64,000 nucleotides of DNA from a virus: IMG/VR virus record IMGVR_UViG_3300010286_000195; one strand, written 5' to 3'. The notes beneath the pieces are model-generated. The model searched no databases, had not been told where the DNA came from, and worked only from the letters and a program-made list of their open reading frames with translations. The translations under genes and the position numbers were made by a program. The stretch's first letter is position 1, and each line of letters starts with the position of its first letter. Shown one piece after another: positions 21,519 to 63,400 of this stretch.

Positions 21519-21655
21519 AAATCTCTTCAATTCTTTGAGTAAAACAGCATTATTTTGGCATGTTGTTTTGAAGAGGTATATTTACCTGTCTGAGAAAAGA
21601 TAGGGTGCTAAACTCTATAGTTTTGATAGTAAAAAAGGGTAATAATTTGATTCTA
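21519..21655 (-). repeat. dispersed three-block repeat, copy A
   Basis: AATCAAA..CCTATCT..GTTTTACTCAAAGAATTGAAGAGATT blocks on the - strand. Confidence 0.75.
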
Positions 21656-21886
21656 GTATACTATTACACGACCACAAGAATCAAGAGTAAACCCAAGTTC
21701 ATGGTTGATATTAGAGCATGTTATAATCTTACCTGTTTTTTTATCGATGAATAAGATATTACCGCACCATATAGGTTCACCTTTTTCATCAACAAGTTCA
21801 AGGGCAACAGTTTTCTTACCATCCTTGAGGTTGAAGTAAACATTCTCACACTTCTCTTTTTCTGTGTAAATACCTTCAACTGCCAT
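21653..21886 (-). CDS. hypothetical protein, triplicated family copy 3
   Basis: Shares G[IV]Y-E, [KN]KTG and GF-LD--GRV motifs with both neighbours. Confidence 0.75.
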   Translation of the reverse strand: MAVEGIYTEKEKCENVYFNLKDGKKTVALELVDEKGEPIWCGNILFIDKKTGKIITCSNINHELGFTLDSCGRVIVY

Positions 21887-22126
21887 TTACACCACTTTTA
21901 CTCTACCCTTTTCATCAAGTTCAAAACCAATCATGTTGTTTACATCTGGTTCTCTTTTAATCTCACCTGTTTTATTATTAATTGTGCAGATGAAAGGTGC
22001 ATTAATATCAACACCATTTTTATTGACAATTTTGATAATTACTTCATCATCATTCCACTCTTCAAGTTTAAAGTAAAGTCTCTCTTCACTCTTTACTTTC
22101 TCATTATAAACTCCAACAACACCCAT
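21887..22126 (-). CDS. hypothetical protein, triplicated family copy 2
   Basis: Same motifs as above; stop and start codons abut. Confidence 0.75.
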   Translation of the reverse strand: MGVVGVYNEKVKSEERLYFKLEEWNDDEVIIKIVNKNGVDINAPFICTINNKTGEIKREPDVNNMIGFELDEKGRVKVV

Positions 22127-22366
22127 TTATACTACCTTTACTCTTCCCCATAAATCAAGATCAAAACCAATTTTTTCAGAAACACTGTCAAAACGAGTAA
22201 CTACACCTGTTTTCTTACTGATCATAAATATAATTGCAATTTCCTTCCCATCCTGATTGACAACACTAAGAACAACATTGTCACCACAATCAGTCAATTT
22301 AAAGAAGTATTTTTCCTCTTCCTTAATCTTCTCAGCGTTATAAACGCCACAAACCTTGTAACTCAT
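22127..22366 (-). CDS. hypothetical protein, triplicated family copy 1
   Basis: Same motifs as above; TATA-like TTTTTATATAA about 50 nt upstream. Confidence 0.75.
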   Translation of the reverse strand: MSYKVCGVYNAEKIKEEEKYFFKLTDCGDNVVLSVVNQDGKEIAIIFMISKKTGVVTRFDSVSEKIGFDLDLWGRVKVV

Positions 22367-22461
22367 CTTTCTTACACCAAACCTATGTTGTATACAATTA
22401 GTTTTACGGTGTTATATAAAAAGGTTTTGAAATTGATTCAACCTACACTATTGTGCAAAAC

Positions 22462-23058
22462 TTATTCTGGATGATAATAACGATATAGGTAATAGCGCAA
22501 AGTATTTTCAACATTGAAACAAACGCTGTCAATAGAACCGTTTGCATCCAGAATAAAGTAACGATGTTTTCCTTCTTTTGCAAGTTTTATATAATTATCC
22601 TGAATCTTTTGTAATCGCTGTATTTCTTCTGTCATATTGTTTATCTTACGCCGTTTAGCATTACGCATAGCGAACACAGTAGGATTACCGTAAAGGAAGA
22701 TAGTAATGTTAGGGAAAAGTGTGTTTCCATCAAAGAAGCGCATAATCTCATCGGGATCACGTTCAAGGATTACTCCATAACGCGCAATGATTTCATCCAG
22801 GTAGGAATCGGTAATCACAACCTTACCCTCTTCAAGAGCAGGTGTGATAAATGAATCAATATGGTCATAATGATCGAGTAGCGTAAAAAGTAACTGTTTC
22901 TCAGGGTTATCCTTATGTTTTTCAATCAATTCACGCATATCTTCAGCGTAAGGTTCACTAGTGTAAACAATATCTTCAAAATCAGTTAAGTTTTCCTGTA
23001 AATAGTTGAGGACAGTGGTTTTTCCACTTCCCTCAACACCTTCAATACTAATAATCAT
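22462..23058 (-). CDS. tmk: thymidylate kinase
   Basis: ISIEGVEGSGKTT P-loop, TSEP motif, VVITDSY motif. Confidence 0.85.
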   Translation of the reverse strand: MIISIEGVEGSGKTTVLNYLQENLTDFEDIVYTSEPYAEDMRELIEKHKDNPEKQLLFTLLDHYDHIDSFITPALEEGKVVITDSYLDEIIARYGVILERDPDEIMRFFDGNTLFPNITIFLYGNPTVFAMRNAKRRKINNMTEEIQRLQKIQDNYIKLAKEGKHRYFILDANGSIDSVCFNVENTLRYYLYRYYHPE

Positions 23059-23069
23059 GTTTTATCACC

Positions 23070-23714
23070 TCATAAAAAGTTGAGTGCTTCTAATGTATCT
23101 TTAGGGAGTTTAATCTTTAGTGCATTATTCTTGTAATCAGTAATCAAATCAGAAAGTTTAGGATACGCTTCTAGCAACTTCTGTGCGCGTTTATCACCTA
23201 CTCCAGGTAAGGACAGATAAATATCATAGAGTGGATTTGCACTTGACTTGACTTTCTTGTGCTTGACACTCTCTACTTTCTTACCCTTTCCTACCATTTC
23301 CTTGATTTTGAAAATGGCATGGTATAGTTGAGGTGCGGTATCAAACTGAATCATCTTTACATTATACCTTGCTGCTACAGAACAGAGGGAACCAACCGTA
23401 TGTGTAGTTTTCCATTGTTTAGCGTAAGGGACATAATAAAGACTCTTGAAATTACCGTGTATGAAAAGATACGGTTCATCATATTGTTCAAGGTTAATAA
23501 GTTGAGTTTCCAATCTTCCGTCGCGCACAGAATTGATAAAGTCTGCTACAGATTTACGCTCAATGACAATCTTCTTCTCTCCATCAATAACCCAAGCGTA
23601 ATCACCTGATTCCAAATATTCAAAACGGACTTCGACATTATACGTTTTTGCAATGCGAGCAATCTTATTTTGAACAGTTTTGGGTTCTCTTGTATCTACA
23701 ATTAAGTATTCTAT
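23070..23714 (-). CDS. ERCC4/XPF-family structure-specific nuclease with HhH domain (apparent ATA start)
   Basis: GDY, IERKSVADF and LPGVGDKRA motifs. The conserved IVDTREP lies upstream of the listed TTG start; in-frame TAG-TAA bounds the ORF just upstream. Confidence 0.85.
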   Translation of the reverse strand: MEYLIVDTREPKTVQNKIARIAKTYNVEVRFEYLESGDYAWVIDGEKKIVIERKSVADFINSVRDGRLETQLINLEQYDEPYLFIHGNFKSLYYVPYAKQWKTTHTVGSLCSVAARYNVKMIQFDTAPQLYHAIFKIKEMVGKGKKVESVKHKKVKSSANPLYDIYLSLPGVGDKRAQKLLEAYPKLSDLITDYKNNALKIKLPKDTLEALNFL

Positions 23715-23718
23715 AATA

Positions 23719-24798
23719 TCACCTGTATATTTTTACTAAATGTCTATCTTTCGTGCCATACTCTCTTGTAAAGTCACAGTAACCAGATAGAGGACAATAC
23801 CCATACTGTTTGACAAGTTCACAACGCGGGAAAATAGGTTGGTTGTAAACATCAAATAGTCTATCAAGTTGTCGCTCCTCAACGATGCAATGATACGCTT
23901 CTGTGCGTCCATTGCGTGTGCTTACAAGATATTTCTCTAATATGTCCTTGATCTCACCGTAGAGGAAACCACTATCACGCAGATAGGTAATAAGCAAGTA
24001 GCGCCCTCTAAAACCTACTCGTTTTGTCATACTATTTATCAGTAAGGATGAAATGCATGGTGGAAGAGTTTTGAGTAGAGAATCATGCGAAATCTGCATA
24101 CGAATAGCATCATCATACTCTAATTTATAGTCCTGTGCATCGATTGAAGAGTAGCGATTGATGTAATATTTTCCACCCACATCAAACATTTCCATGTTCA
24201 GGCATTTGTTACCATAAACCGTGTAATCACATGGATGCGGTTGATGTGTGGCCTTACGCTGAATAAACTTCAATCCACGTTCAAGATCATCTGTTGTAAG
24301 AGGAATACAATACCTTCCACGGCGATTGTTGAAAGTTCCAGGGATGGTTGCAACACGCGCAACATCGCCCATAACCTTTTCATCCATCGTAGTCAACTTG
24401 AACTTCCTTACAAAAAATGAATGTGCGCTAAAGAGTGCTGCTTTCTTATTCTTCAATTCCGCGTAATTCTTAGTGAAGAGGTAGAAGTGGAATCCTGCAC
24501 CAGAATATAGCATCAGGTAGCGCATGTCACGCTTATCAAACTCATTTGAGAGTTTTACTGCTTCATCAAATGATTTCTCACCGTCAAGATCAAAGAATAT
24601 CTTATCTACGTTAAGAAATGCATCATCATACACCTCAGAGGACGTATAATTGTAAATGGTAGCAAATACACGCTTGTATGATTTATAGCGATTTATCTGC
24701 TCGTAAAATTCCTCAGAAGTATTTGTTGTAATCCGGTAAGGAATTGCAATTTGACGCGGGAATGAATTGTAAAGCAACTTGTGAATAGTGACGCACAC
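23719..24798 (-). CDS. archaeo-eukaryotic primase, PriS catalytic domain fused to a PriL-CTD-like domain
   Basis: IFFDLD, YSGAGFH and RVATIPGT motifs; C-terminal LPPCI...GRYLL...C...C..C. Confidence 0.8.
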   Translation of the reverse strand: MCVTIHKLLYNSFPRQIAIPYRITTNTSEEFYEQINRYKSYKRVFATIYNYTSSEVYDDAFLNVDKIFFDLDGEKSFDEAVKLSNEFDKRDMRYLMLYSGAGFHFYLFTKNYAELKNKKAALFSAHSFFVRKFKLTTMDEKVMGDVARVATIPGTFNNRRGRYCIPLTTDDLERGLKFIQRKATHQPHPCDYTVYGNKCLNMEMFDVGGKYYINRYSSIDAQDYKLEYDDAIRMQISHDSLLKTLPPCISSLLINSMTKRVGFRGRYLLITYLRDSGFLYGEIKDILEKYLVSTRNGRTEAYHCIVEERQLDRLFDVYNQPIFPRCELVKQYGYCPLSGYCDFTREYGTKDRHLVKIYR

Positions 24799-24849
24799 AA
24801 TCTTCCACCACTATTCTATATGTAAAAAAGAGTTAATAAAGATTATTAT

Positions 24850-25536
24850 TTAGAGGAAGTCATCCTGCATTGTTTCATCGTAAATCATGTCACATATGTA
24901 AGCGTATTCACAATAGTTGCACAACCAGGACGGTTTAGCATCAAACTTCTTCGCTTCAATCTTCTTTACTGTATTGTCAAACTTACGCAGAACAGAACGA
25001 ATACGTTTCTCTTCCATATCCTCAATGAAAGAATCATTGGGACTTACCGTAAAAAAGATACCAACCTGATCAATCTTGATGTCTGTTGTTTTCTGCACTA
25101 GGTAGACATACAAGTGCAGTTCATCCAGGTAGTCTTTGTAATCACTTTCACGATACTTGCCCGTCTTATAATCAACTAGGATGTGCTTACCATCTTTTTC
25201 ATATATTGCATCGATGATTCCCACAAGATTTTTCTCTTCATCATACAATCTACGTTCAGCGTAAGTAGCGCGATCTAAACCAAACATGGAAAGAATGATA
25301 AAGAAATTATCAATGTGTGTCTTGTAGAAATCATCCTTCATTAAGAACTGTTTATAATATTCGAATTCAGGTGAGTTTTTGTTATATAATTCAAACAGTT
25401 CATGGAGAGTGCTACCTTTCTTTGCAGCCTCATTAGATACTTTGTCCTCACCATAAATCGTGTAATTCTCGATGTAGAACTTACGAGGACACTTACGGTA
25501 AAGATTCATCTTACTCTTACTCATGCGGAACTTCAA
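24850..25536 (-). CDS. Cas4-like PD-(D/E)XK exonuclease
   Basis: CPRK, GSTLH, GIIDAI, LVDYKTG and CNYCEYAYIC (four-Cys Fe-S arrangement). Confidence 0.85.
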   Translation of the reverse strand: MKFRMSKSKMNLYRKCPRKFYIENYTIYGEDKVSNEAAKKGSTLHELFELYNKNSPEFEYYKQFLMKDDFYKTHIDNFFIILSMFGLDRATYAERRLYDEEKNLVGIIDAIYEKDGKHILVDYKTGKYRESDYKDYLDELHLYVYLVQKTTDIKIDQVGIFFTVSPNDSFIEDMEEKRIRSVLRKFDNTVKKIEAKKFDAKPSWLCNYCEYAYICDMIYDETMQDDFL

Positions 25537-26311: not shown

Positions 26312-29300
26312 CTACTGTATCCACAGGCACACGTAACACAACCTTCAACCATACTCATGCGTTCACCACATTCAGGGCAGATGTTATATTCAGTTGTTAC
26401 TTTCATTTTACGCGAAATAGGTGTTGGTTCTGACTCCTTATCAGGAATCAGACTTTCAATTACTCGCCCGACAACATCAGAGCATGACTTTCCATCACAT
26501 TTACCTTCAGTGAATTTCTTGTAGGCCACAGGACAAGTAACATTACGTAGAGTCTTGATTATATCCCAAGTGGGAACATTCCAACGCATAGAGAGAGAAA
26601 TCATCTGACCAAGTGCATCATTCATAGCGGTGCAACCACCTTTGTTGTTTATAATACACTCATACGGCTTGCCATCCTTCTCTGCAACAGAGATGATTAG
26701 TTTACCACAACCACTACGACGCTTACTGTTGGTTGCAGGAAGATCAGCATCACGCTTTGGTAGGATTCTACCGTTAGTAGGTGTAGGGGTAGATGTTGAT
26801 TCTTTCTTGAGTTCCATAACAATATCATTTCTGCTACCTGTTACGTAAATGGTAACACCCTTACACTTTTTCTCATGAGCGTAAAGAATTGCATTTCTAA
26901 TGTCATCTTTAGTAGCACTTGAAGGCATATTGATAGTCTTACTGATAGCAGCATGACAATACTGCTGAAACGCTGCCTGCATGTCAATGTGTGCCTTCCA
27001 ATCAATGTCTAGTGCAGTTTTGAACACAGATTTAAATTCAGTAGGCAACCATGTAATATCCTGAATAGTTCCTGTTTCGTAAGCGTGATTAATTACTTCC
27101 TGCTTTTTCTTATCCCACTGTGAAAATTCATAATGAGTTTCAATATACTCATCCAACTTTTCTTCAAAGACCGGATCAACTATTAGGTATCCTTTCTTTT
27201 CGCCATCTACCCATGTGTAACGCTTATGCACTAGGGAATATACAGGTTCAATACCATATGAGGTTTCAGAGAGTGTTGCAATACTTCCAGTGGGTGCTAT
27301 GCACGTTGTAGTAGCATTACGCATTGGAATATCTTGTAGGAACCATTGAGAACCCTCATAAGCGGGGAATGTGCCAAGTTCTTTTGCAAGTTTACGTGAA
27401 GTAGCGACAGAGAATTCATCAAGAATACTCATGACTAATTTTGCCTGATACAATGCATAAGAACTATCGTAAGGAATACCCATCTTCATAAGCATGTGAT
27501 GGAATCCCATGTAACCTAATCCAATCTTACGAGTCTTTCTACTCGCGCCTGCAATCTCTTCAATAGGATATTTATTGAGATCAATAATTTTATCGAGAAA
27601 TTCAGTTGCCTGTTCAATAGTATTAATCAATCTTGGGGTATCAAGTTTATTATTATCAATAAAGTTAGATAAATTTATACTGCCTAGATTACAAGACTCT
27701 CCTGGTAGTAGTGGTTGCTCTCCGCAATTCGAGGCTATTACGCCGTTGAAAATGCCAGTGTGATTCTTAGGTTCGTTGAAACAGTAAACCTTGTCTACAA
27801 TTTCATTATTTTTTGTAATTGAAACAACACTAATAAATCTTTTTGCACTTCTATTGCAATTAACATCAATAGGAACTCTATGCGTTTTGAGTCCAAGTTC
27901 TTTAAGTTTTGCTACATCGGATGCAGCAATCACAATTCTATATGATTCAAGACATTCATACTCTTTTTGACCGCCATTTCCATCAGGCATTAATTTTGAA
28001 CCTGCTAAACGCATAATATTAACAGATGTATTAATTCCAAGTGTGTTAAGCATATATTTTATCTTCATCAGGAAGTCTTTATCAACCGATGAAATAGTAA
28101 TACTGCCTTCACTTGAATTTCTACTTCCATCACTATCAATGATACCTGCTAACCAATCTAATCTTGATCTGATTGTGTATTCACAACCAGGAACAAATAC
28201 TTTGTCATAATCACCATCAAGGATAGCCAAAATTCTTCTATCACTATTTGGATTAATATATACTTTTTTTGCCTTTATATACTTTAAAAGTTCTTTCTTA
28301 CCATCATATAACCAAATCTGATATTGATTACTTGCTGTATGATAACAACCATCACCACTGTAAAAGCCATGTGTATAAGCATTCTCAAGTTCTTTAATAC
28401 CCTCAATAACAGGGTAATCACACTTGATAAGTTTGTCACCCACAACTAAATCTTTTGCCTCTTTTTTAACAATCTTACATCCATTACTTTTGTAACAATC
28501 TTGTAAGATAAACTTATGATAAGGAGTGCATTTTACTTTATTACCATCGCTAAATGTTACTTCCATTACCTCTTGATTAAAACCAGTAACGCAAGGTGTA
28601 ACAACACTCCACTCAAACCCATTCCAAATAGTAGTTTCCTTTCCTACGCACTCATCAATGCGCTTATATCCTTCATTGGTAAGAACCAATGTATCACCTG
28701 TAACACAGGGATTGGTTGCTTCAATATTACCAAGATGTTTGCAAGTATTATCATCATTAATTGTATTGTAAAACAGAATCCCAGGCTCACCATTGAGCAT
28801 TATTCCTTCAATAATCTTATCAAATAATTCTTTTGCTCTGACTGTTTTGTAAATCTTGCCCTCAAAGTGAAGGTTATATTCTTTATCATTTTTTACTGCA
28901 TTAATAAAATCATCATCAATCATTACAGAGATGTTAAAGTTAGAAAGATCACCTTCAGTATTCTTACATGTAATGAACTTCTCAATGTCAGGATGCCATA
29001 TTGGAAGAATACCCATATTGGCACCTCTTCTTCTTCCACCTTGTTTTACTGCTTCAGTAGCAGCATTAAATACTTTCATGAAAGAAATAGGGCCGGATGC
29101 AACACCATCTGTTCCATTTACTCTATCACCTTCAGGTCGAAGATTACCAAAAGAAAAACCTGTGCCTCCACCCGTCTTATGAATCAATGCAGCATTTTTA
29201 ATTGTAGTAAAAATACTTTCCATAGAATCATAGATTGGCAGAACAAAACATGCAGAAAGTTGTCCTAAATTAGTTCCCGCATTCATAAGGGTAGGCGAAT

Positions 29301-32035: not shown

Positions 32036-32298
32036 AAATATAACTCCATGCTAGTATATTCTTTCCTACAATAATCTAAGAACGCTTCAGCAAGTTTAAT
32101 CAGTTCATCATCATTGTTTGTAAACACATAATTATATGTTTCATAAATCCTTCTCTCTTCTTCATCCTCACTTATGAAACCACAAATTGCAGCATCACAG
32201 AACCAACAAAACTCAACAAGTGTTCTGTGCATTAATGGGTAACATCCACGTAACCTTGCACATTCAATCAAGATGTCATTGAGAGTATCATTACTCAT
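32032..32298 (-). CDS. hypothetical protein
   Basis: ORF with AGGTGA RBS. Confidence 0.55.
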   Translation of the reverse strand: MSNDTLNDILIECARLRGCYPLMHRTLVEFCWFCDAAICGFISEDEEERRIYETYNYVFTNNDDELIKLAEAFLDYCRKEYTSMELYL

Positions 32299-32394
32299 CC
32301 TTTCACCTGCATAATTAATTTTCAGTCTGATTATATATGTCTTATGTTTTTGACAGAAAGTGTATCAATTACAATACACGTTATGAAACACCCA

Positions 32395-32533
32395 CCACAA
32401 TCAAAAAATCATACCAAAATCATAGCGTTTTCGCATGGTTTAGCACCCTATCTCTTGTGGGATGAACATTTATATCACCCTGAAAAAACATATCGAAAAA
32501 AGTGCAGTTTTACTCAAAGAATTGAAGAGATTT
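32395..32533 (+). repeat. dispersed three-block repeat, copy B
   Basis: Same blocks and spacing as copy A; ends at the polB stop codon. Confidence 0.75.
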
Positions 32534-34856
32534 ACCAAAACCTTTCAACACCATCCAGTTCATGTATGTTCCATCCCATACTCAAGAATATGTAATGGAA
32601 TTTCTCATCGATCAACTTCTCTGCCATGCGCGCATAATCTATAGTGAATCCTTCAGGTATTGGTTGCTCATCAGTGAATGATATTGCATGGGTCTTAGGC
32701 AGTCCAGGTGGAACATCTTTGACATAAACATATTTCACCTTCTCCATCTTGATGTTACCATTACAATATTTATTGAAATAGATTGCACCATGGATATGAA
32801 TAGGCATGTTGGAAGTGTATTCGTGAAATTCCTTTGTTACACCTTTTGGAATACCTATTTCGTAAGGAGAGTATTCACCATTCAGTATTTTATCTCTTAC
32901 CTGTTTCACCGCTGCAAATATCTCTTCCTTACCCTTTCCGGTAAGAATCATCCGAAACACATTACTTTGTAATTCTCTGATTATGGTAGGTGTATCACTG
33001 CGCTTTGCCTCAAATCCTTTGATTTCAAGTTTAGGATGGTCAGATATATCAACACCATCCTTGTAGACAATCAGACCTGCATATCGCTTCTTTATGGCAT
33101 TATCATATTCATCGCCTACAAAGAATACATTACTGTAAATCTTTTCAAATTCAATGAACATTTTGTTGTAGGTTGAATCACCAAATTCTGTTTCACAAAA
33201 GTAATCAAGTGAGTTGTTAATGTAATCAATACAATCATTACCCTCCTTAATCAGTTCAGCAAGATTCTGACGCTGTAATTTAAATATGAGACTATCCGTG
33301 TCTCCACCGATGATTTCATGCCCTAATTCAGTGATTTTCTTCTGCATCCACAAATTAGTTCTCCTACCAAAGTAAGTAATAGACTTACCAATATCCCGCG
33401 TAAACAACCTGAAATGTGGTGCAAGCATCACTCCATACACTGAATTGAGTAAGAACTTGCATACGGTCTGAATAGTATCCCACATTTCGTATTCGTGAGA
33501 ACCAAGTTCAAAGGTGTCACGCTTCTTTTTAAACTCCTGACGCAAGTTCCAAAGATCCTCCACTACACGCGGAATGAACCCACGTTTATCCAGGCTAAAG
33601 TAAACATCATCTACCTGCACATATTTGTTACATTTTGTTACATCAGTAACAATTGTTTCAGGTGACATGTTACACGTAAGGATAGCAGTAGGATACAGAG
33701 AGCGCACATCACCCACAGCAACGTTCTGATGGACTCCTACCGTTGGTGTAATGACAATAGCGCCTGTAATCTTCTCGTAATCCTTCTGCTTACGAGTAGT
33801 GGGTAGGACAATACCATACTCCTTAGCCTTGAGTAAGAAGAAACAATCCAGCACCTTACTGTTGTAGAATACATCATACCAACTGCAAAAGGTAAAGCGA
33901 CGAATGGTATCAAAATATTTGACAATCCCCTTTGACTCTTCAATCTTTACCATAAGGTAGACATCTTTGATATTATACTCGATAAACTTGTCAAGATTGT
34001 TACGCCAAAAGTCTTGGAACTTCTCTTCATGTTCTATTTTCCCTACACCTAACTCTTTTTGTGAAATGTATTCCAGGGAGTATGATTCCATCTCTTGCGT
34101 AGACAGTTTTCTGTAACAAACCATTAAATCCAACCAGATTCTACACAGTGGTTTATCAGCCATGTCTCCATAACCCTTGCCCATCTGTTTAACGGGAGAT
34201 AACAAACGTGGATTTATTTTCAACACTTTCATGCGATTAAACAGGTAAGGATAATCAAATCTATCACCGTTCCAGGCAAGAAAGAGATCAAAGTCTAACT
34301 GCTGCACAAAGGTAAGGAATTTATTAAGCATTTCCTTTTCAGTAGTAAACATGAATATGCGCGCTTCTACTTCATTCCCATCAAACTGAATCTTACGTGT
34401 GTATTTGTTCTTACTGACTACTCCATCCGGTGCAACAGTAAAACAATAATAGAGGTTACGGAAGTTGTCATAGGCAGCAATGGATGTAATCATGGTGTCT
34501 GCCTTTGCAATGTTAGGGATTCCATCAGTTTCAATATCAAAAAAACATATCCTAATCGTCTCACTTTCAATACCTGTCTGATAGTAGTTATCAATCAGGT
34601 ATCGCGTAGTGGATGTAACATCTGCTTCATATGTGTTCTTATATAACTTCTTATTATCTTTGAAGTCCTTTTGATTCACGCATGTAATACGCTGTAATTT
34701 CTCACCAAACAGAGAATAGTAGGTTTCCCCTACAATGTTCTGTCGAGGCACATAAAAATAAGGTTGGAAATGATTGATACGTTGCTCGTAACGCTTACCG
34801 TGTTCATCCCGACCACGAATGATAATAGAATCCCCTATCGCTTCGGTTATAATCAT
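32532..34856 (-). CDS. polB: family B DNA polymerase
   Basis: FFDIET, WNGDRFD, YNIKD exonuclease motifs; DVRSLYP, KFLLNSVYG, GDTDS and KKRY polymerase motifs. Confidence 0.95.
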   Translation of the reverse strand: MIITEAIGDSIIIRGRDEHGKRYEQRINHFQPYFYVPRQNIVGETYYSLFGEKLQRITCVNQKDFKDNKKLYKNTYEADVTSTTRYLIDNYYQTGIESETIRICFFDIETDGIPNIAKADTMITSIAAYDNFRNLYYCFTVAPDGVVSKNKYTRKIQFDGNEVEARIFMFTTEKEMLNKFLTFVQQLDFDLFLAWNGDRFDYPYLFNRMKVLKINPRLLSPVKQMGKGYGDMADKPLCRIWLDLMVCYRKLSTQEMESYSLEYISQKELGVGKIEHEEKFQDFWRNNLDKFIEYNIKDVYLMVKIEESKGIVKYFDTIRRFTFCSWYDVFYNSKVLDCFFLLKAKEYGIVLPTTRKQKDYEKITGAIVITPTVGVHQNVAVGDVRSLYPTAILTCNMSPETIVTDVTKCNKYVQVDDVYFSLDKRGFIPRVVEDLWNLRQEFKKKRDTFELGSHEYEMWDTIQTVCKFLLNSVYGVMLAPHFRLFTRDIGKSITYFGRRTNLWMQKKITELGHEIIGGDTDSLIFKLQRQNLAELIKEGNDCIDYINNSLDYFCETEFGDSTYNKMFIEFEKIYSNVFFVGDEYDNAIKKRYAGLIVYKDGVDISDHPKLEIKGFEAKRSDTPTIIRELQSNVFRMILTGKGKEEIFAAVKQVRDKILNGEYSPYEIGIPKGVTKEFHEYTSNMPIHIHGAIYFNKYCNGNIKMEKVKYVYVKDVPPGLPKTHAISFTDEQPIPEGFTIDYARMAEKLIDEKFHYIFLSMGWNIHELDGVERFW

Positions 34857-44659: not shown

Positions 44660-46135
44660 TTAGTGACTCCTATTAACTCCAATCATAAATTTACGTTTCT
44701 TCCGAGTTCCTTTATCAACCAACGCAGAACCCTTATTAATCGTCATTCTTACGAGTCCTTCGAGTGCATCAGGAGCATCATCATGTTTGTGAACCGGATA
44801 TCGCACTAATTGATTAATCAGTTCAGGATACGCTTCAATCCAATCATCCCGGAACAAAACTTTACCCGAAGTAATAAACGGTTCAACAGATTCAATACGA
44901 ATTCGTTTCTTCTTCTGATTCTTAATTTCTTTAATTTTCATGCGCTTACGCATATCTTTGATTTTATCATTGCGTTCTTTAAGATATTGAGAAATAAGAC
45001 TCTGGAAACCGTTTGTTTCGATTCCAAGTTCTTCACAATTATAAAAGTTGTAATAATACACCATCTTTTCAATAGAAACATTTGGCGGTGATGTATTACT
45101 TAACCAACAATCACGCACGTAAAGAACATGGTCTTTGATTGCACCTACTATAATAACGCAAAAATCATTCTCATTACCAAGTGCAGGATCAACATAGATA
45201 ACATGCTTACAATCTTTGAAAAAAGGATTTTGTGCACGTTCTTGTGGACGTTTCAATTCAGTATAAAAGTGCATATTTTCTATGTTAAACAACTGTGTTT
45301 CTGATGGTAATGGTTGATTTAAATACTGACTTGAAAACTCTACTGCACCCTTCTCAATACGTAACGCCTGGATTTTATTTTCATCATAAATTGTAGGATA
45401 CTTTGGTTTACCATGTTCATCTATGATGGAATCAATCTCAATGTCATAACGCATAAAATCAGGCAATTTTGGATTTTGCTCAATAATTTCGCCATATAAC
45501 TCATCGTCATGCCAACGAGTTCCTATGATCATCAGTAGTCCATCAGGTTCAAGAATTGAGATTAAATCCTTATACCAACGCTTCTTCTGCTCACGAATAG
45601 CAGCAGATTCACGGTCTGCGTCATTTACAATGTCATCGCAGATAATAATATCATAGTGCTCTGATGTCATCGCTGAAAGAGCACCACGCGCCTTAAGATT
45701 TGGTTCCTTCTTTACAACGCGCGGATGTAAGACTACTTCCTGCTGATTCAATTTAATAATAGGATTATCATTACCAAAATCAGCAAAGAACTGTTTTATA
45801 TTTTCATTCTCTGTAAGATGCTGTGTAATCTCGTAAAGAATCTGCTCTGCTAAGTCATTGGTAGCAGATGTAATCAAAATACGTAAGGTAAACTTTCCAT
45901 CATGCTTCACGTAATCATCAAGCAGACGATCAATAACAAAAGAAACATCATAAATAGTAGTTTTATAAGTTCCACGCGGTTTCAGGCGCATGATACGTTT
46001 GTGAGTCTTGATTGCTTTTTCTAGGTCATCGCACCACTCTTTATGAACATCCTTAGTTATTTTCTCGTAACCAAGCATGTATTTTGCAATGTTATAAAGA
46101 GTGAGACGTTTACCATGATAAATGATATTAGACAT
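44660..46135 (-). CDS. terL: terminase large subunit
   Basis: PRGTYKTT, IICDD, IGTRWH..D, YVDPA and HDDAPDAL motifs. Confidence 0.93.
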   Translation of the reverse strand: MSNIIYHGKRLTLYNIAKYMLGYEKITKDVHKEWCDDLEKAIKTHKRIMRLKPRGTYKTTIYDVSFVIDRLLDDYVKHDGKFTLRILITSATNDLAEQILYEITQHLTENENIKQFFADFGNDNPIIKLNQQEVVLHPRVVKKEPNLKARGALSAMTSEHYDIIICDDIVNDADRESAAIREQKKRWYKDLISILEPDGLLMIIGTRWHDDELYGEIIEQNPKLPDFMRYDIEIDSIIDEHGKPKYPTIYDENKIQALRIEKGAVEFSSQYLNQPLPSETQLFNIENMHFYTELKRPQERAQNPFFKDCKHVIYVDPALGNENDFCVIIVGAIKDHVLYVRDCWLSNTSPPNVSIEKMVYYYNFYNCEELGIETNGFQSLISQYLKERNDKIKDMRKRMKIKEIKNQKKKRIRIESVEPFITSGKVLFRDDWIEAYPELINQLVRYPVHKHDDAPDALEGLVRMTINKGSALVDKGTRKKRKFMIGVNRSH

Positions 46136-47935: not shown

Positions 47936-48249
47936 ATATGATTATAGGGTAATCAACATAGTATATGATCACGGTAATCATCATTACACTTGTCATTACC
48001 TTTGTCTTACAAGAAGTGTAATAGCACAAAAAATAGGCATCGCGTATGCAATTAAAAAGGGGTAAGAATATAGTCAATATTCGCAGATTTTGAAAAAAAT
48101 CGATACCGTTGGCTATAATATATATAATATTCCTTTGCTATTTTATTTATTAGTAACTAATAGTATATAAAAGTTTCTATTCTATCCTAAGAGTAACTTG
48201 CACTTAGAAAGGAGATGTAAATGCACGAAAAAATAACATGTGACATGCA

Positions 48250-48390
48250 CACTACAATCAAATTTTTACCCCACTTCTTTATAAAGAAACATGCTAAATT
48301 CAGACCTATCTTTTCACGGACGATGTTTTATACCTTTGAGAAAGTGTAGGTGAAAATAATGCAGTTTTACTCAAAGAATTGAAGAGATTC
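48250..48390 (+). repeat. dispersed three-block repeat, copy C
   Basis: Same blocks and spacing as copy A. Confidence 0.75.
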
Positions 48391-48398
48391 AAAAAGTG

Positions 48399-48608
48399 TT
48401 ATAAGTAGAGATGTTTATTCTGGTTTTTGTAGACGTTCACAATTTTGTGTCCTTTGTCACTTTGCGAGTCTACATTTACCAAATGAAGTAAATCTTCGTA
48501 ACAAATGTAACATTTCTTACCTGCAACATTAATCTCAACAAAATCTTCACCGTTGATATACTTCTTTGTTGCTTCACCTACTTTTCTAAAGTCAGCCATT
48601 GTAAACAA
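48399..48608 (-). CDS. hypothetical protein
   Basis: ORF with GAGG RBS. Confidence 0.55.
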   Translation of the reverse strand: MFTMADFRKVGEATKKYINGEDFVEINVAGKKCYICYEDLLHLVNVDSQSDKGHKIVNVYKNQNKHLYL

Positions 48609-49483: not shown

Positions 49484-49563
49484 GAGCGTGTATATACCAC
49501 GAAAGTATAAATAGTTTTTGCAGTTCAAAAAAATTTTATACCTTACAAACAAAACATGTAAGT

Positions 49564-50566: not shown

Positions 50567-50762
50567 ATATCTTAAATTGTCGTGTAAATATTTATACTTT
50601 TTGGTTTCACTACTTTCCTTACACTAAATAAAAAAGAAAACAACTTGTAAGGAAGATAGTATGTGTTACGTGTGTTATTGTATGTGTGATTATTTTCTTA
50701 CGTGATACTTCTTACTTCGAGCATCATGTAAGAAACAGCAGCGGAAACCTATGTGATATACC

Positions 50763-50896
50763 ACACCATAATCAAAAAATCATATCAAAATCATGCAGTT
50801 TTTGATGGTTTTAGAGGGGTAACTTGCAAAAAAGGTATAAACATATCACCGTGAAAGTTAGGGTAAAAATAATGCTGTTTTACTCAAAGGAAATTG
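50763..50896 (+). repeat. dispersed three-block repeat, copy D (middle block degenerate)
   Basis: AATCAAAAAATCAT and GTTTTACTCAAAG start 107 bp apart. Confidence 0.65.
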
Positions 50897-51644
50897 CTTC
50901 TTTTTTCTAAGCCCACAGAACTTGATTTGAATTTTGAAAACTCGCCGAATATCCCGGAAAACGCCGAACTCGGGGTAACCCAACCCCTTTTTTCTTTCCA
51001 GGATGTCCAGATATGTCAACTATTGTATATCTTTGTTCATCGATGCCCTTTTTTCGTTATCAATATATATATTTGAGCATTGATAACTATGTATGTTCAT
51101 TGATGTTAGTTTGTGGTATTTTTGCTCATATGAGTAATAAACTAGGATAGGTAACATCTCAAAAATGAGATAGGTTTTTAACTTTTTGACTCCTCGCGCG
51201 CGCAATATAAAACTGTCTGATCGTATAATCATATCATAATAGGATAATGCGAGTAATGCGCGATCACAAACAGAGAGTAATTTATCCGTTTTTGATGTTA
51301 AAATCTCGTTGATTTGCGCTTGTTTTTCAGATCTCCTCAAATTAGCCGTATTTGCATGACTATGATATCCTTGTATTGTGCGTATAATCGACGATCTCAT
51401 ATCAAGAAGGGTATAGGTATTATTTGCAAAATTGATGCGCTTAAAACGCTTATATTTCGATGATGCTATCATTGTATATTATATTTGGTTTACAAATACA
51501 TAAAGTATAGGAACCCTTATATGTTAGAAGTATAAGTATATATATAGAATATCATCATGCGAGATAGAAATTTGTTTTTTGGGTTCTGTTTGTTAATTTG
51601 GCGTTGTGTGCGTTGTTTTTCCATTTAACAAATGACATTTCGAT

Positions 51645-54850: not shown

Positions 54851-54887
54851 GGTTAAGTCAACTTATGTTGACTTAACCACTTTTTTT
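54851..54887 (+). terminator. 12-bp hairpin plus T-tract
   Basis: GGTTAAGTCAAC-TTAT-GTTGACTTAACC, then TTTTTTT. Confidence 0.65.
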
Positions 54888-56347
54888 ATTCGATTTTGGA
54901 GTTGCTACTTTTCTATACTTTTGTGTTACTGAATAATACTTTTTGCTTTGTGGTCTTTTTGTGGTAATGTGTGTTGGTTTTGATGCCTCGAATGTCATCA
55001 GAGCCACATATTAGCGTTTTGAGACAGTTTAGTTTCAGGACGTAGTTTAGTATAGGGAGAAGGGAGATCGTCGATTTAAAGAAGGCACTTTCCTTTGAGA
55101 TTTGGTGATTTGTGTTTTGATTTGGGTTTATTTGTGGAATTGAATAGAAGTATGATAAATAATGTAAATTGTTTGAGATTTGGAAAGTAATTAATAAGTT
55201 TGCACAAGTAGAGTTGTTTACAAGTTGGATTGATATAGAACAAGTGAAGTTGTATACAAGTATAATTGTGTTATTGTAATTTAGATTTAAAAACAATTAG
55301 GGTTGATATTGAGAAAGAGGAATGGATTAACAAGTAGAATTGTTTTAGATTAAATAAAGTTGTTAAGCAAAAAAAGTTTAAAAAAGTAAAATAAACTATC
55401 CTCACCGCTCATAACCGAAACTCACCACTCGATTTTTCAGATGTAACAATTTGTAACATTTTTTCAAAATTATTCGTATTATTCCGAACAAAAATCTACA
55501 AAAAATGCGCATATGAGAAAAAATTTTGTTACTCTTGTTGCAACAAGAACAACAACCTAATACTTGTATCATATAACCACTTAATACCATACATATGTGT
55601 TTTTCTCTTTCATGTAGGTTACCTATCTATCATGATCTATCACGCTATAAGTTGCGGTAAATGGACATTTCCCGCAATTATGAGCAGATTAGAGTTTTGG
55701 AAAAATAAACGATAATCCATAGAGTTTACCTATTAGATCATATACTATCACGCAATAGCGATATCGTCATAGCGTCAATATCGCATGTTGTATCAGTCAC
55801 CACAAAACAGAGGCATATTGAGCAGGGTATAGCGTGTTATATAGTGATGTATTGATGATACATATGAACACTTTTATGATCAAATTAATTTAATTTTACT
55901 TTACCTTTGTGCGCGCGGACGTCACCACATCATGAGGCACACACGCATATATAGCACACTCTCGCGCGCCTAGTTGATATGCGAGTTGTTACCAAATATG
56001 ATATGACTGTATGATGTAGTGCTTGTGTTCTCTATCTCATGTATGAGATAGCATATCGCTATTCATTATCCTTATCTATGCTCACTTATGGTTACTGACT
56101 GACATATGTGTGCAATGATGTATTAGTTCGTACATTTACGAAAAAAGAGCCCCCCCGGTGCCCTCAGACGCTCGGGTTAAGTGGCTCACAAAATTTTTAT
56201 AAAAAAATAACTAAACTTGGGTAAAAACCCCTAAATAAACCCCTTTCTCTAAAAAGAGTTAAAACCCATTACTTCTCTATTCTTCAACAATGAACTACCA
56301 CGTGAGCAATACACTTTCTTAATTGTAAAACCACCTGATTATCATTT

Positions 56348-59778: not shown

Positions 59779-59781
59779 TCC

Positions 59782-60034: not shown

Positions 60035-60172
60035 CCACACTAGAATCAAAAAATATGGTGCTAAACATATCAAAACTGTATGTTTCCGGCACCTATCTTA
60101 CGCGGGACATAGTTTTACATGGGTAAAAAAAGTAGTATGAAAAAAGTGATGTTTTTCTCGTCAAATTGGGCT
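60035..60172 (+). repeat. dispersed three-block repeat, copy E
   Basis: CTAGAATCAAAAAAT, CCTATCT and GTTTTTCTC blocks at the same spacing. Confidence 0.65.
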
Positions 60173-60390
60173 TAAAATACTTGCAGTTGATAACTATCAA
60201 TCTTCTCAACCTTTTTAATCTCATGCATCTGTAAATATTCAATAAACATATTGGTTACAGATGGATCATACTTACACCCTGTGTCGTAAATCATGAAATC
60301 ATTCCACAATTCATGAATCCTTTCGTAAGAAGTATCCACCTGGATAATACCATCTACCTTGTAACCATCAGTAATTACAAACAAACTCAT
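60172..60390 (-). CDS. hypothetical protein
   Basis: ORF. Confidence 0.5.
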   Translation of the reverse strand: MSLFVITDGYKVDGIIQVDTSYERIHELWNDFMIYDTGCKYDPSVTNMFIEYLQMHEIKKVEKIDSYQLQVF

Positions 60391-60441
60391 GCAAACACCA
60401 TGTCATAAATTTTACACGCGCATTCAATCGTTTTACGCATA

Positions 60442-60825
60442 TTAATCATCCTCGATTGTAATTTCAGGTAAGGGTTCATGTCCTGTTTTCATCGGTTCAT
60501 TGAAGTCTACAGTCCAACCACCTTCCGGGTAACGTTTCCAAGCATACGCATGTCGAATTACTTGATAAATATCCCATGCCTCTTGTCCCGGCCCTACAAT
60601 GTCATTGTAAATACCATAATACTCATTTGACTCAAGTTCAGGGAAAATCATTTCACGTAAGCGATCAAGATAAAAACGCGCATTGTCCTGGTTGAACTCG
60701 TGCTCGAACCTAAATTCGTCGGAGATTACATGGAACTGTCCCATGCGCACACGTGAGTAAAACTCAAGTGCGTTCATTAGAACTTGTGCCTGATTTTCAT
60801 TGAAAGTAAGAGTAAATTTCATCAC
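60442..60825 (-). CDS. hypothetical phage protein
   Basis: 127 aa; overlaps the upstream gene. Confidence 0.65.
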   Translation of the reverse strand: MMKFTLTFNENQAQVLMNALEFYSRVRMGQFHVISDEFRFEHEFNQDNARFYLDRLREMIFPELESNEYYGIYNDIVGPGQEAWDIYQVIRHAYAWKRYPEGGWTVDFNEPMKTGHEPLPEITIEDD

Positions 60826-61247
60826 TCACCACCTTCTACAAACTTCCTTACAGGTGTTCTCTTCACTTCTACAAGCGCATATTCCACCACTTCAGCATCG
60901 TAAGGATACTCTTTGTAAAGAGGAATACTCTGCTTTGTTTCGTGGTTGTAACCTATGATTTGTTTAAAATGATTCTTTAGGTGACTTGCTTTCATCCAAA
61001 TCTTACCCTTGTTATCAAAGTGAGGATTTAAACCACCACTTGAGAATAAATTATCCTTCTCTACACGGAATACAGTATCGCGCACTTCCTCATAGCATTC
61101 ACTACCTGAAGATAATAGATTCAATTTGGGATCAAAATGACATTGACCCCATACTTTACCTTTACAACCTACCGCAATACATTCTTCATTCATGCTTCCA
61201 CACGGTGTAACATCTTCCATGTTACCAATGTAACGATACATCTTCAT
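60822..61247 (-). CDS. hypothetical protein
   Basis: 141 aa with AGGTG RBS. Confidence 0.6.
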   Translation of the reverse strand: MKMYRYIGNMEDVTPCGSMNEECIAVGCKGKVWGQCHFDPKLNLLSSGSECYEEVRDTVFRVEKDNLFSSGGLNPHFDNKGKIWMKASHLKNHFKQIIGYNHETKQSIPLYKEYPYDAEVVEYALVEVKRTPVRKFVEGGE

Positions 61248-61563
61248 TCATTTACACCTTACTGTATACAGTTCACGTGTAAGGATAAAAAGGTTACGAA
61301 AAAGAAACGCAAAAGAGGAAAAAGGTAATGAATATTAGTAATGAAATACTAATGACAAGGATAATATTCTTAACCATGTAATCCACATCCTAAAAATTAG
61401 TATTTAAATTACAGTGATGGTCACTACAACCTTCTTATCTTCGAAGTCTGATATGATATTCTCAATAGAATCTTCATCAACGCACCACAGATCATATTCG
61501 TCATCGTAAGAAACAACACCTTCAAGGACAATATTCTTAATCATGTAAACCATATCCTAAAAA

Positions 61564-61938
61564 TTAGAGTTTCTCCATCTCCTCTGCAAGTTCAGCTGTT
61601 GCTAATGCAAGCCAATCCAAGAACTCTTCCCTGTAAGGACAATCGTAGGCAAGGTTGGTAAAGAACGTGGTAAACCCTTCAAACGTAATGATAAACGAAT
61701 CATCAACCTGCTCCACCAGATCCATCTCCTCCAGGCGATTCATCATAACCTTCTGTAACTCCTCGCTCCTGAAATCATCCGCACCCGCACCAAGCATCTG
61801 CTTACACAGCACCGCATAGATGATTGCCGCACCCACATCTGTAGGGTAATACTGTCCCTCTTCTGTGCGCTCAACGATTCCAATTCCCTCAAGGATGTCA
61901 TATCCTTCCTTTACTTCATTACTAACTTCAGGTGTCAT
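61564..61938 (-). CDS. tandem winged-helix-like protein, paralog 3
   Basis: LEGIGIV...YYPTDVG and LEEMDLV...FIITFEG wing motifs. Confidence 0.55.
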   Translation of the reverse strand: MTPEVSNEVKEGYDILEGIGIVERTEEGQYYPTDVGAAIIYAVLCKQMLGAGADDFRSEELQKVMMNRLEEMDLVEQVDDSFIITFEGFTTFFTNLAYDCPYREEFLDWLALATAELAEEMEKL

Positions 61939-62546
61939 GTTTTTCTTGCACCGGATATTATGTCTACGCTTTACTATTTATGTGTTGTGTAATGCACTCG
62001 TAGGGATAAACGGGTAGGGAGAGATAATGGGTGATATATGTAGGGGGATATAATATTATATTTTGTCCTACACTTTTCGTAGGAAACAGTAGATGAGAAA
62101 GTGGGATACAACACCTCATCCCAAAAGTCATGTGAAAATGGGCTGTAAAAGTGGATATGAAAATAGTTTTGGGATAGGATTTTGATATTGGAGTTGATGA
62201 TTGGTTACACTTAATTTTAGTGGTATTTAGTGTAAATTGGGGTATTTGTAAGGATATATATAATATATTATGTTGATTACACTATTAGATTTGGGATAAA
62301 ATAAAGTGTAAGGATAGTATTATGTTTATTACTGTATTCTTATTTAGAATAGAATTACAAGTAAAATATAGTATTAGATTGGTATTACACTATATACTAT
62401 ATGTACATTATATATTCCTTACAATAAGTACAATAATAAATATAATAGAATTATAATATCATTACTCTATTCTTATTAGAAGTAGATTACATGTAAGAAT
62501 ATATAATCTATATATAACTATAATAGGTAATTACACTAATAATATT

Positions 62547-62672
62547 ATCATTACACTATTATCATTACACTATTATCATTACACTATTCTTACTAGAAGT
62601 ACAATATAGTACATGAATTTCTAATCCATAACTGATGTACAAATAGATGTACAAGTATATGTACAAATATAT
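62547..62672. repeat. 14-bp x3 and 12-bp x3 tandem repeats
   Basis: ATCATTACACTATT x3 (62547-62588); [GT]ATGTACAA[AG]TA x3 (about 62635-62670). Confidence 0.8.
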
Positions 62673-63058
62673 GATTAGTACTATAATCATTAAGAATATC
62701 AACTAGAAAGGAGCGCGTAAGCGCGATAGCAGTAGCGAGCGTAGCGCGAGCGTAACTGCACTTGACAAAGAAAAAAGAAAAACCGGAAAAAAGAAAATGC
62801 GTTTGTGGGGCAACGTGCCCACGAAGGACCCCTTACCCCTAATTTATGCAACTCATAGTATATAAATGTTTCGGTCCATGTTGGTATTTTTGAGGTGGAT
62901 GTATATCTAAAAAGATATATCATTTATAAATATATATTACTATCAGTAATAATGGTAATGTGTTTTACCTATTTTCCCATACATTTCCCATACGTGCCGC
63001 ACTGGAAATGAAGGTTGTAATGGTAACGAATAAATAATTAGTAATCAAAGTATTACGT

Positions 63059-63265
63059 ATGTCAGAAATGTGTCAGTATGTCTTTACATGCGTTAAGGAT
63101 GGGACTGTCGAGTATCACTACCTGTATTGCGCTGATCTACTTGAAGCAGTTAAGAAGCATGAGATGATTTACGGGTATGAGTATAAGGTAAAGAGGGTCG
63201 AAGTTCAAGATGGAAAATCGCTCGATAAATTTCAGTCTAAATTGTGGGATTACACCACTCTCTAG
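63059..63265 (+). CDS. hypothetical protein
   Basis: 68 aa; stop codon lies inside repeat copy F. Confidence 0.55.
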   Translation: MSEMCQYVFTCVKDGTVEYHYLYCADLLEAVKKHEMIYGYEYKVKRVEVQDGKSLDKFQSKLWDYTTL

Positions 63266-63400
63266 AATCAAAAAATTCACCCCCTTCTTTATATAGAAAC
63301 GTGCTAATTTTGATCCTATCTTTCAAAATAGGTATAATTGTATACCTCCAAAACATAGGGGTCAAATTTTGCATGTTTTTCTCTTCAATTTGGGCTTATC
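63256..63400 (+). repeat. dispersed three-block repeat, copy F
   Basis: Closely matches copy C in its first 60 bp; same spacing. Confidence 0.7.

Follow-up and report, generated by a model that had tools for sequence, protein, structure and literature searches.

A six-copy non-coding cassette in an uncultured archaeal-type tailed virus as a possible promoter mostly aimed at gene 3' ends

A stretch of 64,000 nucleotides from an uncultured archaeal-type tailed virus (the window) carries six copies of a non-coding cassette of about 140 bp. We confirmed this cassette as a genuine multi-block element. The region between its second and third blocks reads as an archaeal core promoter, oriented as in an earlier reading made from the letters of the window (the sequence-only reading). 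Tentatively, we regard the cassette as a promoter unit that would produce a short, nearly leaderless RNA; at five of the six copies this RNA would extend, in antisense, into the gene next to it at the 3' end. The sequence-only reading had noted neither the promoter geometry nor the in-frame start codon and mini-ORF through the third block. To our knowledge, almost nothing has been established about gene regulation in viruses of methanogen-type archaea.

Results

Six copies with invariant blocks and rigid spacing

A sequence-only covariance model trained on 20 copies was run over the window and gave exactly six matches at 70-101 bits (E values of 1e-21 to 1e-30). These were copy A at 21512..21660 on the minus strand (101.4 bits) and, on the plus strand, copies B at 32391..32539 (99.8 bits), C at 48248..48396 (95 bits), D at 50762..50908 (82.5 bits), E at 60036..60175 (73.6 bits) and F at 63258..63405 (70.7 bits). 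All remaining matches in the window scored 22 bits or less, the next best being reverse-strand self-matches. The six dispersed sites of the sequence-only reading were thus recovered without a seventh. A partial look-alike at 55598-55628 was a chance match.

The distance from AATCAAA (block 1) to CCTATCT (block 2) was 48 nt in A, B, and E and 49 nt in C and F. From block 2 to GTTTTWCTC (block 3) it was 59 nt in A, C, and E and 60 nt in B and F, and from block 1 to block 3 it was 107, 108, 108, 107, 107, and 109 nt in copies A to F. The fixed spacing (48-49, 59-60, and 107-109 nt) was therefore as originally described, and so was the restriction of block 2 to five copies, as copy D has GGTAACT at this place. 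The pattern AATCAAA-N90-110-TGTTTTWCTC was matched four times, compared to 0.02 matches expected from 100 shuffles, showing that the blocks are not expected by composition. The copies diverge from one another by about 36%, while specific blocks are invariant, which argues for selection rather than recent transposition. Blocks 1 and 2 share the 5' half with a variable, often palindromic segment (V1). The 3' parts differ in D, E, and F, and the 3' tail of copy D is a weak hairpin followed by T6. Alignment of the copy ends revealed neither terminal inverted repeats nor target duplication, in agreement with the sequence-only reading.

The idea that the copies are decayed fragments of one coding gene did not hold, since spacings of 48/49 and 59/60 nt shift the frame between the blocks. 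For the same reason we rejected coding by the whole element; only the mini-frame of block 3 is kept. We also rejected a read-through extension of the upstream gene, as copies A and B disagree in its frame relative to block 3.

Position of the copies at gene 3' ends

As previously proposed, most copies lie at gene 3' ends, and in A, B, C, E, and F an oppositely oriented gene stops within 18 nt of block 3. These convergent genes are 20947-21501 on the plus strand at copy A, which ends the late/lysis operon with its stop at 21501, and, on the minus strand, the PolB gene 32532-34856 at copy B, 48399-48608 at copy C, 60172-60390 at copy E, and 63407-63646 at copy F. At copy D the next gene stop is 124 nt away. 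The TAG in block 1 is indeed the stop codon of an adjoining gene in copy A (a 77-aa gene, 21653-21886, minus strand) and in copy F (63059-63265, plus strand).

Copy A is placed between the stop of the late/lysis operon and that of the 77-aa gene, and a separate hairpin with T6, the terminator of the late operon (21490..21517, plus strand), directly precedes it. Copy B lies directly beyond the PolB stop; the gene on its other side (minus strand, start at 32298) has its own TATA-like box near 32336. Copy C is flanked by an iteron-like non-coding region and the stop of its convergent gene. Downstream of copy D the terminator scan found a hairpin with T6 at 50972..50997 (plus strand), where no other plus-strand gene is present to be terminated. 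This structure would end a transcript of about 125 nt starting at copy D on the plus strand.

A promoter-like 3' half

Between blocks 2 and 3, conservation in a consensus of 31 clusters is highest at GA, at TATACC eight bases on, at an A-run, and at AAAATAAT, after which comes block 3 itself. The spacing of GA and TATACC places a G at position -6 of a TATA-like octamer, which is followed by an A/T-rich stretch. The preferred TFB contacts are a G at -6 and an A at -3 (PMC11065993). The conserved GA across the 31 clusters provides a purine-rich BRE with the G at -6, and the A at -3 is found in copy A only. The octamers are TAAATATA in A (21577..21584, minus strand, G at -6, 26 nt before ATG), TTTATATC in B (32469..32476, plus strand, 25 nt before GTG), TTTTATAC in C (48326..48333, plus strand, 25 nt before ATG), and TATAAACA in D (50836..50843, plus strand, 28 nt before ATG). 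Copy E has a weak octamer, TTTTACAT (60113..60120, plus strand), and copy F a palindromic TATA-like core, TATAATTGTATAC (63333..63345, plus strand). The octamer is good in five of the window copies; in E, as in some relatives, it is poor. All six window copies have an ATG or GTG 25-32 nt beyond it, a distance measured to the start codon; in archaeal core promoters, the TATA-like octamer is expected about 22-27 nt before the transcription start site.

The cassette core resembles an RGTATAWAW motif of other intergenic regions in this virus. It is nearly palindromic: the reverse complement fits the viral motif equally well or better in A, B, and C, and the octamer of C matches it in reverse complement. 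Because of this near-symmetry, the predicted promoter direction rests on the conserved G together with the start codon.

Mini-ORFs through block 3

Downstream of the core there is no larger gene, only a mini-ORF of 6-18 codons that runs through block 3 (M-x-F-Y/F-S...) and whose first codons are block 3 (xTG TTT TAC/TTC TCN). Up to their stop codons the frames read MLFYSKN in A (21527..21550, minus strand) and, on the plus strand, (GTG)QFYSKN in B (32502..32525), MQFYSKN in C (48359..48382, with AGGTGA just before), MLFYSKEIASFF in D (50872..50910), (GTG)MFFSSNWA in E (60146..60175), and MFFSSIWAYPKTTMRRVQ in F (63373..63429). In E the stop codon overlaps that of the convergent gene, and the tail of F lies antisense over its convergent gene.

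An ATG or GTG within 12 nt before the TTT codon is nearly always found at the in-frame offsets -3 or -6. Of 85 distinct copies, 77 have an in-frame start and 6 an out-of-frame one; among the 31 clusters, 26 have a nearby in-frame start and five do not. As few as three or four independent events may lie behind the in-frame starts. Substitutions in block 3 affect the Ser codon at its third base (TCA, TCG, TCT), and in one variant the stop changes from TGA to TAA at an unchanged codon position. Synonymous changes of TTT and TAC were never observed, indicating that the constraint on block 3 acts on its nucleotide sequence as well as on its codons. A peptide of 6-7 residues would have no obvious role.

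Distribution in related viruses and other mobile elements

The cassette was found in 23 IMG/VR and 100 metagenome stretches, and these 123 public stretches yielded 87 distinct copies. It is widespread in biogas-reactor metagenomes. Copies are found at orthologous positions in relatives. The complete relative G001 lacks copy E and has other genes at this site. The V1 types are swapped among positions across relatives; the A position, for example, can have a C/F-type or an E-type V1. In more distant relatives (L017-L019, about 50% terminase identity), stretches of 21 kb had neither copies nor analogous dispersed repeats.

The cassette is also present in unrelated integrase-bearing elements that have no large proteins in common with the tailed virus lineage. 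In two stretches, L087 and L114, it is flanked by divergent genes, and no replication protein common to these two and the virus was found. Another stretch, L139, has tandem copies 195 nt apart.

RNA structure, symmetry, and terminators

None of the copies matched Rfam at the gathering threshold or at E values up to 5. RNAalifold returned an empty structure for 6 and for 21 copies, averaged base-pair probabilities revealed no structure common to the copies, and an all-against-all scan of column pairs found invariant 4-bp matches but no conserved helices. MFE z-scores of the whole element were mostly -0.3 to -2, and only the family of copy F had strong overall hairpin potential (z of -4.4). V1 alone tends to fold (mean z of -1.36), even though several V1 types hardly do so, and the 3' part does not (mean z about 0). 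No intrinsic terminator with a G+C-rich stem and T-run was found inside any copy; such sites were seen only beside A (21490-21511) and downstream of D (50972-50997). For the variable segments, a search of the rest of the genome for antisense targets gave nothing beyond 12-15-mers at chance level.

General dyad symmetry, suggested by reverse-strand self-matches with nhmmer and the covariance model, was dismissed: self-complementarity was no better than in shuffles for 28 of 31 clusters and exceeded them only in the F-position family.

The missing conserved helices and Rfam matches favor an element that acts at the DNA level. Together with the invariant blocks and the rigid spacing, the absence of conserved RNA pairing favors a cassette recognized by protein.

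Discussion

The promoter reading and its alternatives

We suggest, as a possibility that falls somewhat short of even chances, that each copy is a self-contained archaeal-type promoter cassette in the orientation of the sequence-only reading. Its 3' half would be the promoter, with a BRE-like purine stretch (G at -6), the TATA-like octamer, and an A/T-rich proximal stretch. Host TBP, TFB, and RNA polymerase would start a short RNA a few bases before the start codon of the mini-ORF, which may be translated. In five of the six window copies the transcript would enter the opposite-strand neighbor gene at its 3' end, forming a convergent antisense unit at a module boundary. Such a unit could counteract read-through or affect the neighbor mRNA at its 3' end, comparable to the oop RNA of phage lambda. 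The 5' half (block 1, V1, and block 2) could serve upstream as a module for regulation or insulation, recognized by some factor that the various carrier elements have in common. Its conservation is not specifically explained by the promoter reading. Of the earlier proposals, a phased multi-block element in intergenic regions at transcription-unit boundaries agrees with the data; the terminator and mobile-element readings are weak.

If the element were a bidirectional terminator or insulator, polymerases from either side would stop inside it at T-runs, at a V1 hairpin, or at a bound protein. This fits the position of all six copies, each of which has a gene stop on one side and on the other either a convergent stop or the promoter of the next gene; it also fits the T4-T7 runs on both strands in most copies and the folding tendency of V1. 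We nevertheless consider it unlikely: neither strand has conserved T-runs, in A and C the strand of the upstream gene offers no more than T3-T4, the late operon before copy A has its own terminator, the element is missing from three other convergent gene pairs in the window (at about 54.85, 57.7, and 59.16 kb), divergent genes flank the cassette in L087 and L114, and the invariant blocks and the in-frame start codon are left unexplained. A family of non-coding RNA genes of about 135 nt, transcribed from upstream and processed at conserved ends with V1 as a variable hairpin, is also doubtful. It would account for conserved blocks that alternate with variable spacers, for V1 hairpins that differ in sequence by copy type and fold more stably when read on the element's strand (E of -5.3 versus -3.3), for the wobble-generating substitutions in the B-family hairpin, and for the tandem copies in L139. 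The structure predictions described above speak against it, as do the several V1 types that barely fold and the lack of an Rfam match, and no conserved promoter precedes block 1. A non-autonomous mobile element (MITE-like or derived from IS200/IS605) or a recombination linker for module shuffling appears very improbable. The missing copy E in G001, the exchange of V1 types, the presence in other mobile elements, and the common orientation of five copies, with copy A reversed across a GC-skew switch, are compatible with mobility, but the G001 site differs by whole genes and is no clean empty site. Moreover, terminal inverted repeats, target duplication, and conserved subterminal hairpins are lacking (the V1 hairpin varies in sequence), no transposase was detected among the window proteins scanned, the copies are stable at orthologous sites, and their divergence of about 36% is concentrated in the spacers and not evenly spread.

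Other alternatives assign the cassette a role towards the host or in replication. It seems distinctly unlikely that it is a portable mini-gene passed between archaeal mobile elements that are otherwise unrelated (a tailed virus and integrative plasmid-like elements), with a short RNA or a peptide of 6-18 residues that would target a host process. A host-directed decoy is quite improbable; it would be an RNA mimic that blocks defense, by resembling either a single CRISPR repeat or an antitoxin, or else a translation-perturbing minigene like lambda bar. The occurrence of the cassette in both the tailed virus lineage and unrelated integrase-bearing elements points to a host partner, and block 3 is more conserved than the neighboring genes. 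Within block 3, GAATTGAAG resembles the ATTGAAA type of 3' terminus in which many archaeal CRISPR repeats end. A promoter, about 30 nt, and a short T-run also form the layout of RNA anti-CRISPRs (PMC10651486). However, a scan of 185,579 species genomes for the exact 21-mer of block 3 placed it in no CRISPR array, the sole match being a chance coding match in a Bacteroidetes MAG. The two CRISPR repeats seen on the linked contigs L055 and L114 are unlike block 3, the 3' parts of D, E, and F differ, and the 5' half is unexplained. CRISPR-repeat mimicry thus gained no support from the exact 21-mer, and 900 kb of related loci contained no mini-arrays of block 3. Transcription-primed replication origins, with a promoter and a conserved transcribed block as in oriF and oriG of phage T4, are extremely improbable. 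C, D, and F adjoin large non-coding regions with iteron-like repeats, and an A/T-rich spacer separates the cassette of L087 and L114 from a neighboring large gene, which is primase-helicase-like in L114. A length of 65 kb is unlikely to contain as many as six origins, though, the virus and the other elements share no replication protein, and B and E are located in ordinary short gaps.

The sharply defined six-copy cassette, present in more than 100 metagenomic contigs and several kinds of mobile elements, offers a handle for study. If the promoter reading is true, it represents a consensus regulatory unit for viruses of methanogen-type archaea and a case of promoters systematically aimed against operon ends. 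Should activity reside in the RNA or the mini-peptide, the cassette would encode a small effector of a new kind. As a portable mini-gene, it would be a class of virus-host interaction module new to archaea (an RNA decoy or a translation-perturbing minigene).

Comparison to known systems

The bacterial REP/BIME and ERIC sequences are dispersed intergenic repeats that form imperfect palindromes. The cassette is similar to these elements of 30-130 bp in its dispersal at gene 3' ends, but it has no general dyad symmetry and is carried by archaeal-type mobile elements. In phage lambda, the pO promoter is located just past the 3' end of a gene and fires back, producing the short antisense oop RNA. 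The cassette likewise has a predicted small promoter beyond a gene 3' end that is aimed back into the gene. The oop system depends on bacterial sigma-70, is present in a single copy, and its RNA was demonstrated experimentally, whereas the cassette is known from sequence and has six copies, with a start codon and a conserved block predicted to be transcribed at the 5' end. RNA anti-CRISPRs and solitary repeat units are short non-coding units with their own promoter on viruses and plasmids, defined by similarity to host CRISPR repeats (PMC10651486). For block 3, such similarity was not found with the exact 21-mer and the repeats of two linked contigs.

Early and anti-defense genes of SIRV2 and other archaeal viruses have virus-specific consensus regulatory sequences, present in many copies and spanning about 75-100 bp around a BRE/TATA core (PMC11065993). 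The cassette shares this many-copy layout around such a core. Within a genome, the flanks of the SIRV2-type sequences are conserved, and a wHTH regulator was suggested to bind them (PMC11065993). While these sequences are found directly upstream of protein genes (PMC11065993), the cassette is followed by a frame of only 6-18 codons, is directed in five of its six copies against a convergent gene at the 3' end, and is also carried by non-viral integrative elements.

Conserved Blocks and Distribution of the Cassette

The cassette, a non-coding element of about 135-140 bp, was present in the window in the copies A (21512-21660, minus strand), B (32391-32539, plus), C (48248-48396, plus), D (50762-50908, plus), E (60036-60175, plus) and F (63258-63405, plus). 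A MAFFT alignment showed blocks 1 to 3 (AATCAAA, CCTATCT and GTTTTWCTC) across the six stretches, and the block spacings were identical to those reported in the sequence-only reading. Its description of the gene contexts was also correct, and in agreement with it, neither terminal inverted repeats nor target duplications were found. A chance origin from AT-rich composition was contradicted by a shuffling test, with 4 matches of the two-block pattern versus 0.02 expected. A sequence-only covariance model derived from 20 copies recovered the six window copies at 70-101 bits; nothing in the rest of the window scored above 22 bits, the next matches being the same copies read backwards. We rejected an origin from decayed gene fragments, since the spacings of 48/49 and 59/60 nt break any reading frame across the blocks.

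The 23-mer of block 3 was present in 15 IMG/VR stretches and the three-block pattern in 23 IMG/VR and 100 metagenome stretches. From all fetched loci, 87 distinct full-length copies were taken, which formed 31 clusters at 90% identity. In the model search, occupancy of orthologous loci held for positions A, B, C, D, and F in the complete 69-kb relative G001 and failed for position E. Different genes fill the E site of G001, and no empty site was visible there. The fetched stretches of relatives with about 50% terminase identity contained no copies. About five sequence types exist for V1, the variable segment that separates blocks 1 and 2, and their exchange between positions in different relatives implies recombination among copies.

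The 3' Half Resembles a Promoter and Leads into a Mini-ORF

Conservation between blocks 2 and 3 was highest, in the consensus of the 31 clusters, at a GA dinucleotide, TATACC eight bases further on, an A-run, AAAATAAT, and block 3. In the orientation of the sequence-only reading, the consensus shows a TATA-like octamer ending in TATA, a G at -6, and then an A/T-rich proximal region. TFB prefers contacts to G at -6 plus A at -3 (PMC11065993). The octamer is separated from an ATG or GTG by 25-32 nt in the six window copies, and in a canonical archaeal promoter, transcription would then start a few bases before this codon and the RNA would have almost no leader.

The codon opens a mini-ORF of 6-18 codons, the first codons of which are block 3 itself (TTT, TAC or TTC, TCN). 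The predicted peptides are MLFYSKN (A), (GTG)QFYSKN (B), MQFYSKN (C), MLFYSKEIASFF (D), (GTG)MFFSSNWA (E), and MFFSSIWAYPKTTMRRVQ (F). Of 85 distinct copies, 77 had an ATG or GTG in frame (offset -3 or -6) in the 12 nt that precede the TTT codon, and 6 had one out of frame. The start codon is supplied by two arrangements, ..ATGCWG-TTT and ..GCATG-TTT, and a nearby start is absent from 5 of the 31 clusters. Because the copies are related, few independent events stand behind the in-frame starts. The most common substitutions in block 3 affected the third position of the Ser codon, and in one variant the TGA stop was replaced by TAA at the same codon. Synonymous changes never occurred at TTT and TAC, so constraint on block 3 also acts at the nucleotide level.

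Direction of the Cassette and Its Neighboring Genes

The TATA-like core is nearly palindromic, and the viral motif RGTATAWAW fits its reverse complement in A, B, and C and the forward strand in D and F. The direction of the cassette was therefore assigned from the conserved G and the start codon. The motif itself is probably the TATA-box consensus of the virus. It was found at intergenic sites of the window on the plus strand (47428, 48162, 49504, 51535, 51646, and 62857) and on the minus strand (49542, 50598, and 58599); the boxes at 49504 and 49542 face each other with about 30 nt between them.

Downstream of copy D and on the same strand lies a G+C hairpin with T6 (50972-50997), and no other plus-strand gene is present that it could terminate. 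This arrangement fits a plus-strand unit of about 125 nt starting at D. D-type tails have their own weak hairpin and T-run immediately after the mini-ORF. The predicted RNA of A, B, C, E, and F would enter the last codons of the neighboring gene in antisense. Since, as read from the sequence, each of the opposite-strand genes downstream at B and E has a TATA-like box of its own, and a separate hairpin with T6 terminator precedes copy A, we concluded that the cassette is neither the promoter nor the sole terminator of its neighbors.

Between convergent genes at 54851-54878, where no cassette is present, a perfect hairpin of 12 bp has T-runs on either strand and resembles a classic bidirectional terminator. 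Three tandem paralogues of 77-79 aa (21653-22366, minus strand), which lie immediately upstream of copy A and show up as an 86-nt direct repeat spaced by 240 nt, had no Pfam match.

The Virus and Its Probable Host

The window covers nearly all of a single-contig virus record of 64,745 bp; its bases differ from the genome record at 28497 and 28507, both within the gene for ribonucleotide reductase. The proteins encoded in the window include a family-B DNA polymerase, a ribonucleotide reductase whose intein contains a LAGLIDADG domain, a large terminase, a clamp-loader-like ATPase, thymidylate synthase, thymidylate kinase, dCTP deaminase, and Dam methylase. The terminase large subunit (44660-46135, minus strand) has 491 aa and is intein-free, whereas that of close relatives (89-92% identity; P0007-P0009) has 840 aa and a LAGLIDADG domain, which is an intein presence/absence polymorphism.

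An archaeal host, probably a methanogen, is indicated by the anticodon-loop intron (66-68 nt) of one window tRNA gene, by an archaeal histone encoded in relatives with a terminase identity of about 50%, and by the intergenic TATA-like motif RGTATAWAW. The histone gene adjoins the portal gene in the relative L017. According to ENA record names, related contigs came from fermentation-type metagenomes. Two tRNA genes are located on the minus strand at 63791-63929 and 63932-64000. ARAGORN placed the intron of the first at 36/37 and assigned the anticodon UUA (a "stop" reader); moved to position 37/38, which is canonical in archaea, the intron would leave the loop CUUUGAA, and the gene would be tRNA-Gln(UUG). 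The second gene encodes tRNA-Leu(UAA). The related contig L019 (terminase identity about 51%) encodes a TROVE (Ro60-like) domain protein at 4433-5899.

The Cassette in Other Mobile Elements

A D-like copy was found on L087 and L114, two AT-rich elements with a weak tyrosine-integrase match and a D5-like primase-helicase, respectively. There it is flanked by divergent genes; a co-oriented gene follows 70-100 nt downstream and in L087 has its own TATA-like box. No large protein is common to these elements and the window virus, and DNA similarity is confined to the cassette. A unit that functions across unrelated mobile elements probably deals with a host factor.

In L114, the AT-rich element adjoins G+C-rich DNA of cellular appearance that contains a CRISPR array, either through integration or through chimeric assembly. 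The G+C-rich stretches (100-2400 and 10400-13783, about 60% G+C) harbor 38 units with a 61-nt period (GTGTTCCCCACATGCGTGGGGATGAACCG), a gene for a flavodiiron-type protein, and a TnpB-like fragment. The 4.2-kb contig L055 starts with two CRISPR-like repeats 66 nt apart (positions 1-130; ATTTCAATCCACGCACCCGTGAAGGGTGCGA..) and leads directly into sequence 90% identical to the PolB gene of the window. The contig was apparently joined in assembly through a spacer targeting this virus group and offers a clue to the CRISPR system of the host.

Possible Functions of the Cassette

We tentatively favor, short of even odds, that the cassette is a promoter that would drive a short mini-ORF RNA, almost without a leader, against the neighboring operon's end, with the 5' half as a putative regulatory or insulating module. 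A terminator or insulator would suit the location at gene 3' ends and is unlikely, given the separate terminator at A. A full-length non-coding RNA is equally unlikely: the cassette matched no Rfam family, had no consensus RNA structure, and an all-column-pair scan of the 31 clusters yielded only 4-bp matches between invariant runs. The folding energy of the whole element was unremarkable in all window copies except F, and self-complementarity exceeded that of shuffles in the F-position family only. V1 alone tended toward a hairpin (mean z of -1.36 on the strand of the element and -0.98 on the other), and several V1 types hardly fold.

A decoy RNA or minigene aimed at the host would suit the copies in unrelated elements and would refine the promoter reading in terms of function; it is rather improbable. 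Exchange among copies and the lack of copy E in G001 might suggest a mobile or recombination element; this is quite improbable, no transposase or integrase family being present among the window proteins scanned. A transcription-primed origin, which would also draw on the promoter-like half, is very improbable.

Repeated virus-specific regulatory sequences around a BRE/TATA core are already known from crenarchaeal viruses (PMC11065993). Unlike these, the cassette has no protein gene downstream, is directed at gene 3' ends, carries a conserved start codon and mini-frame, and is shared with non-viral elements.
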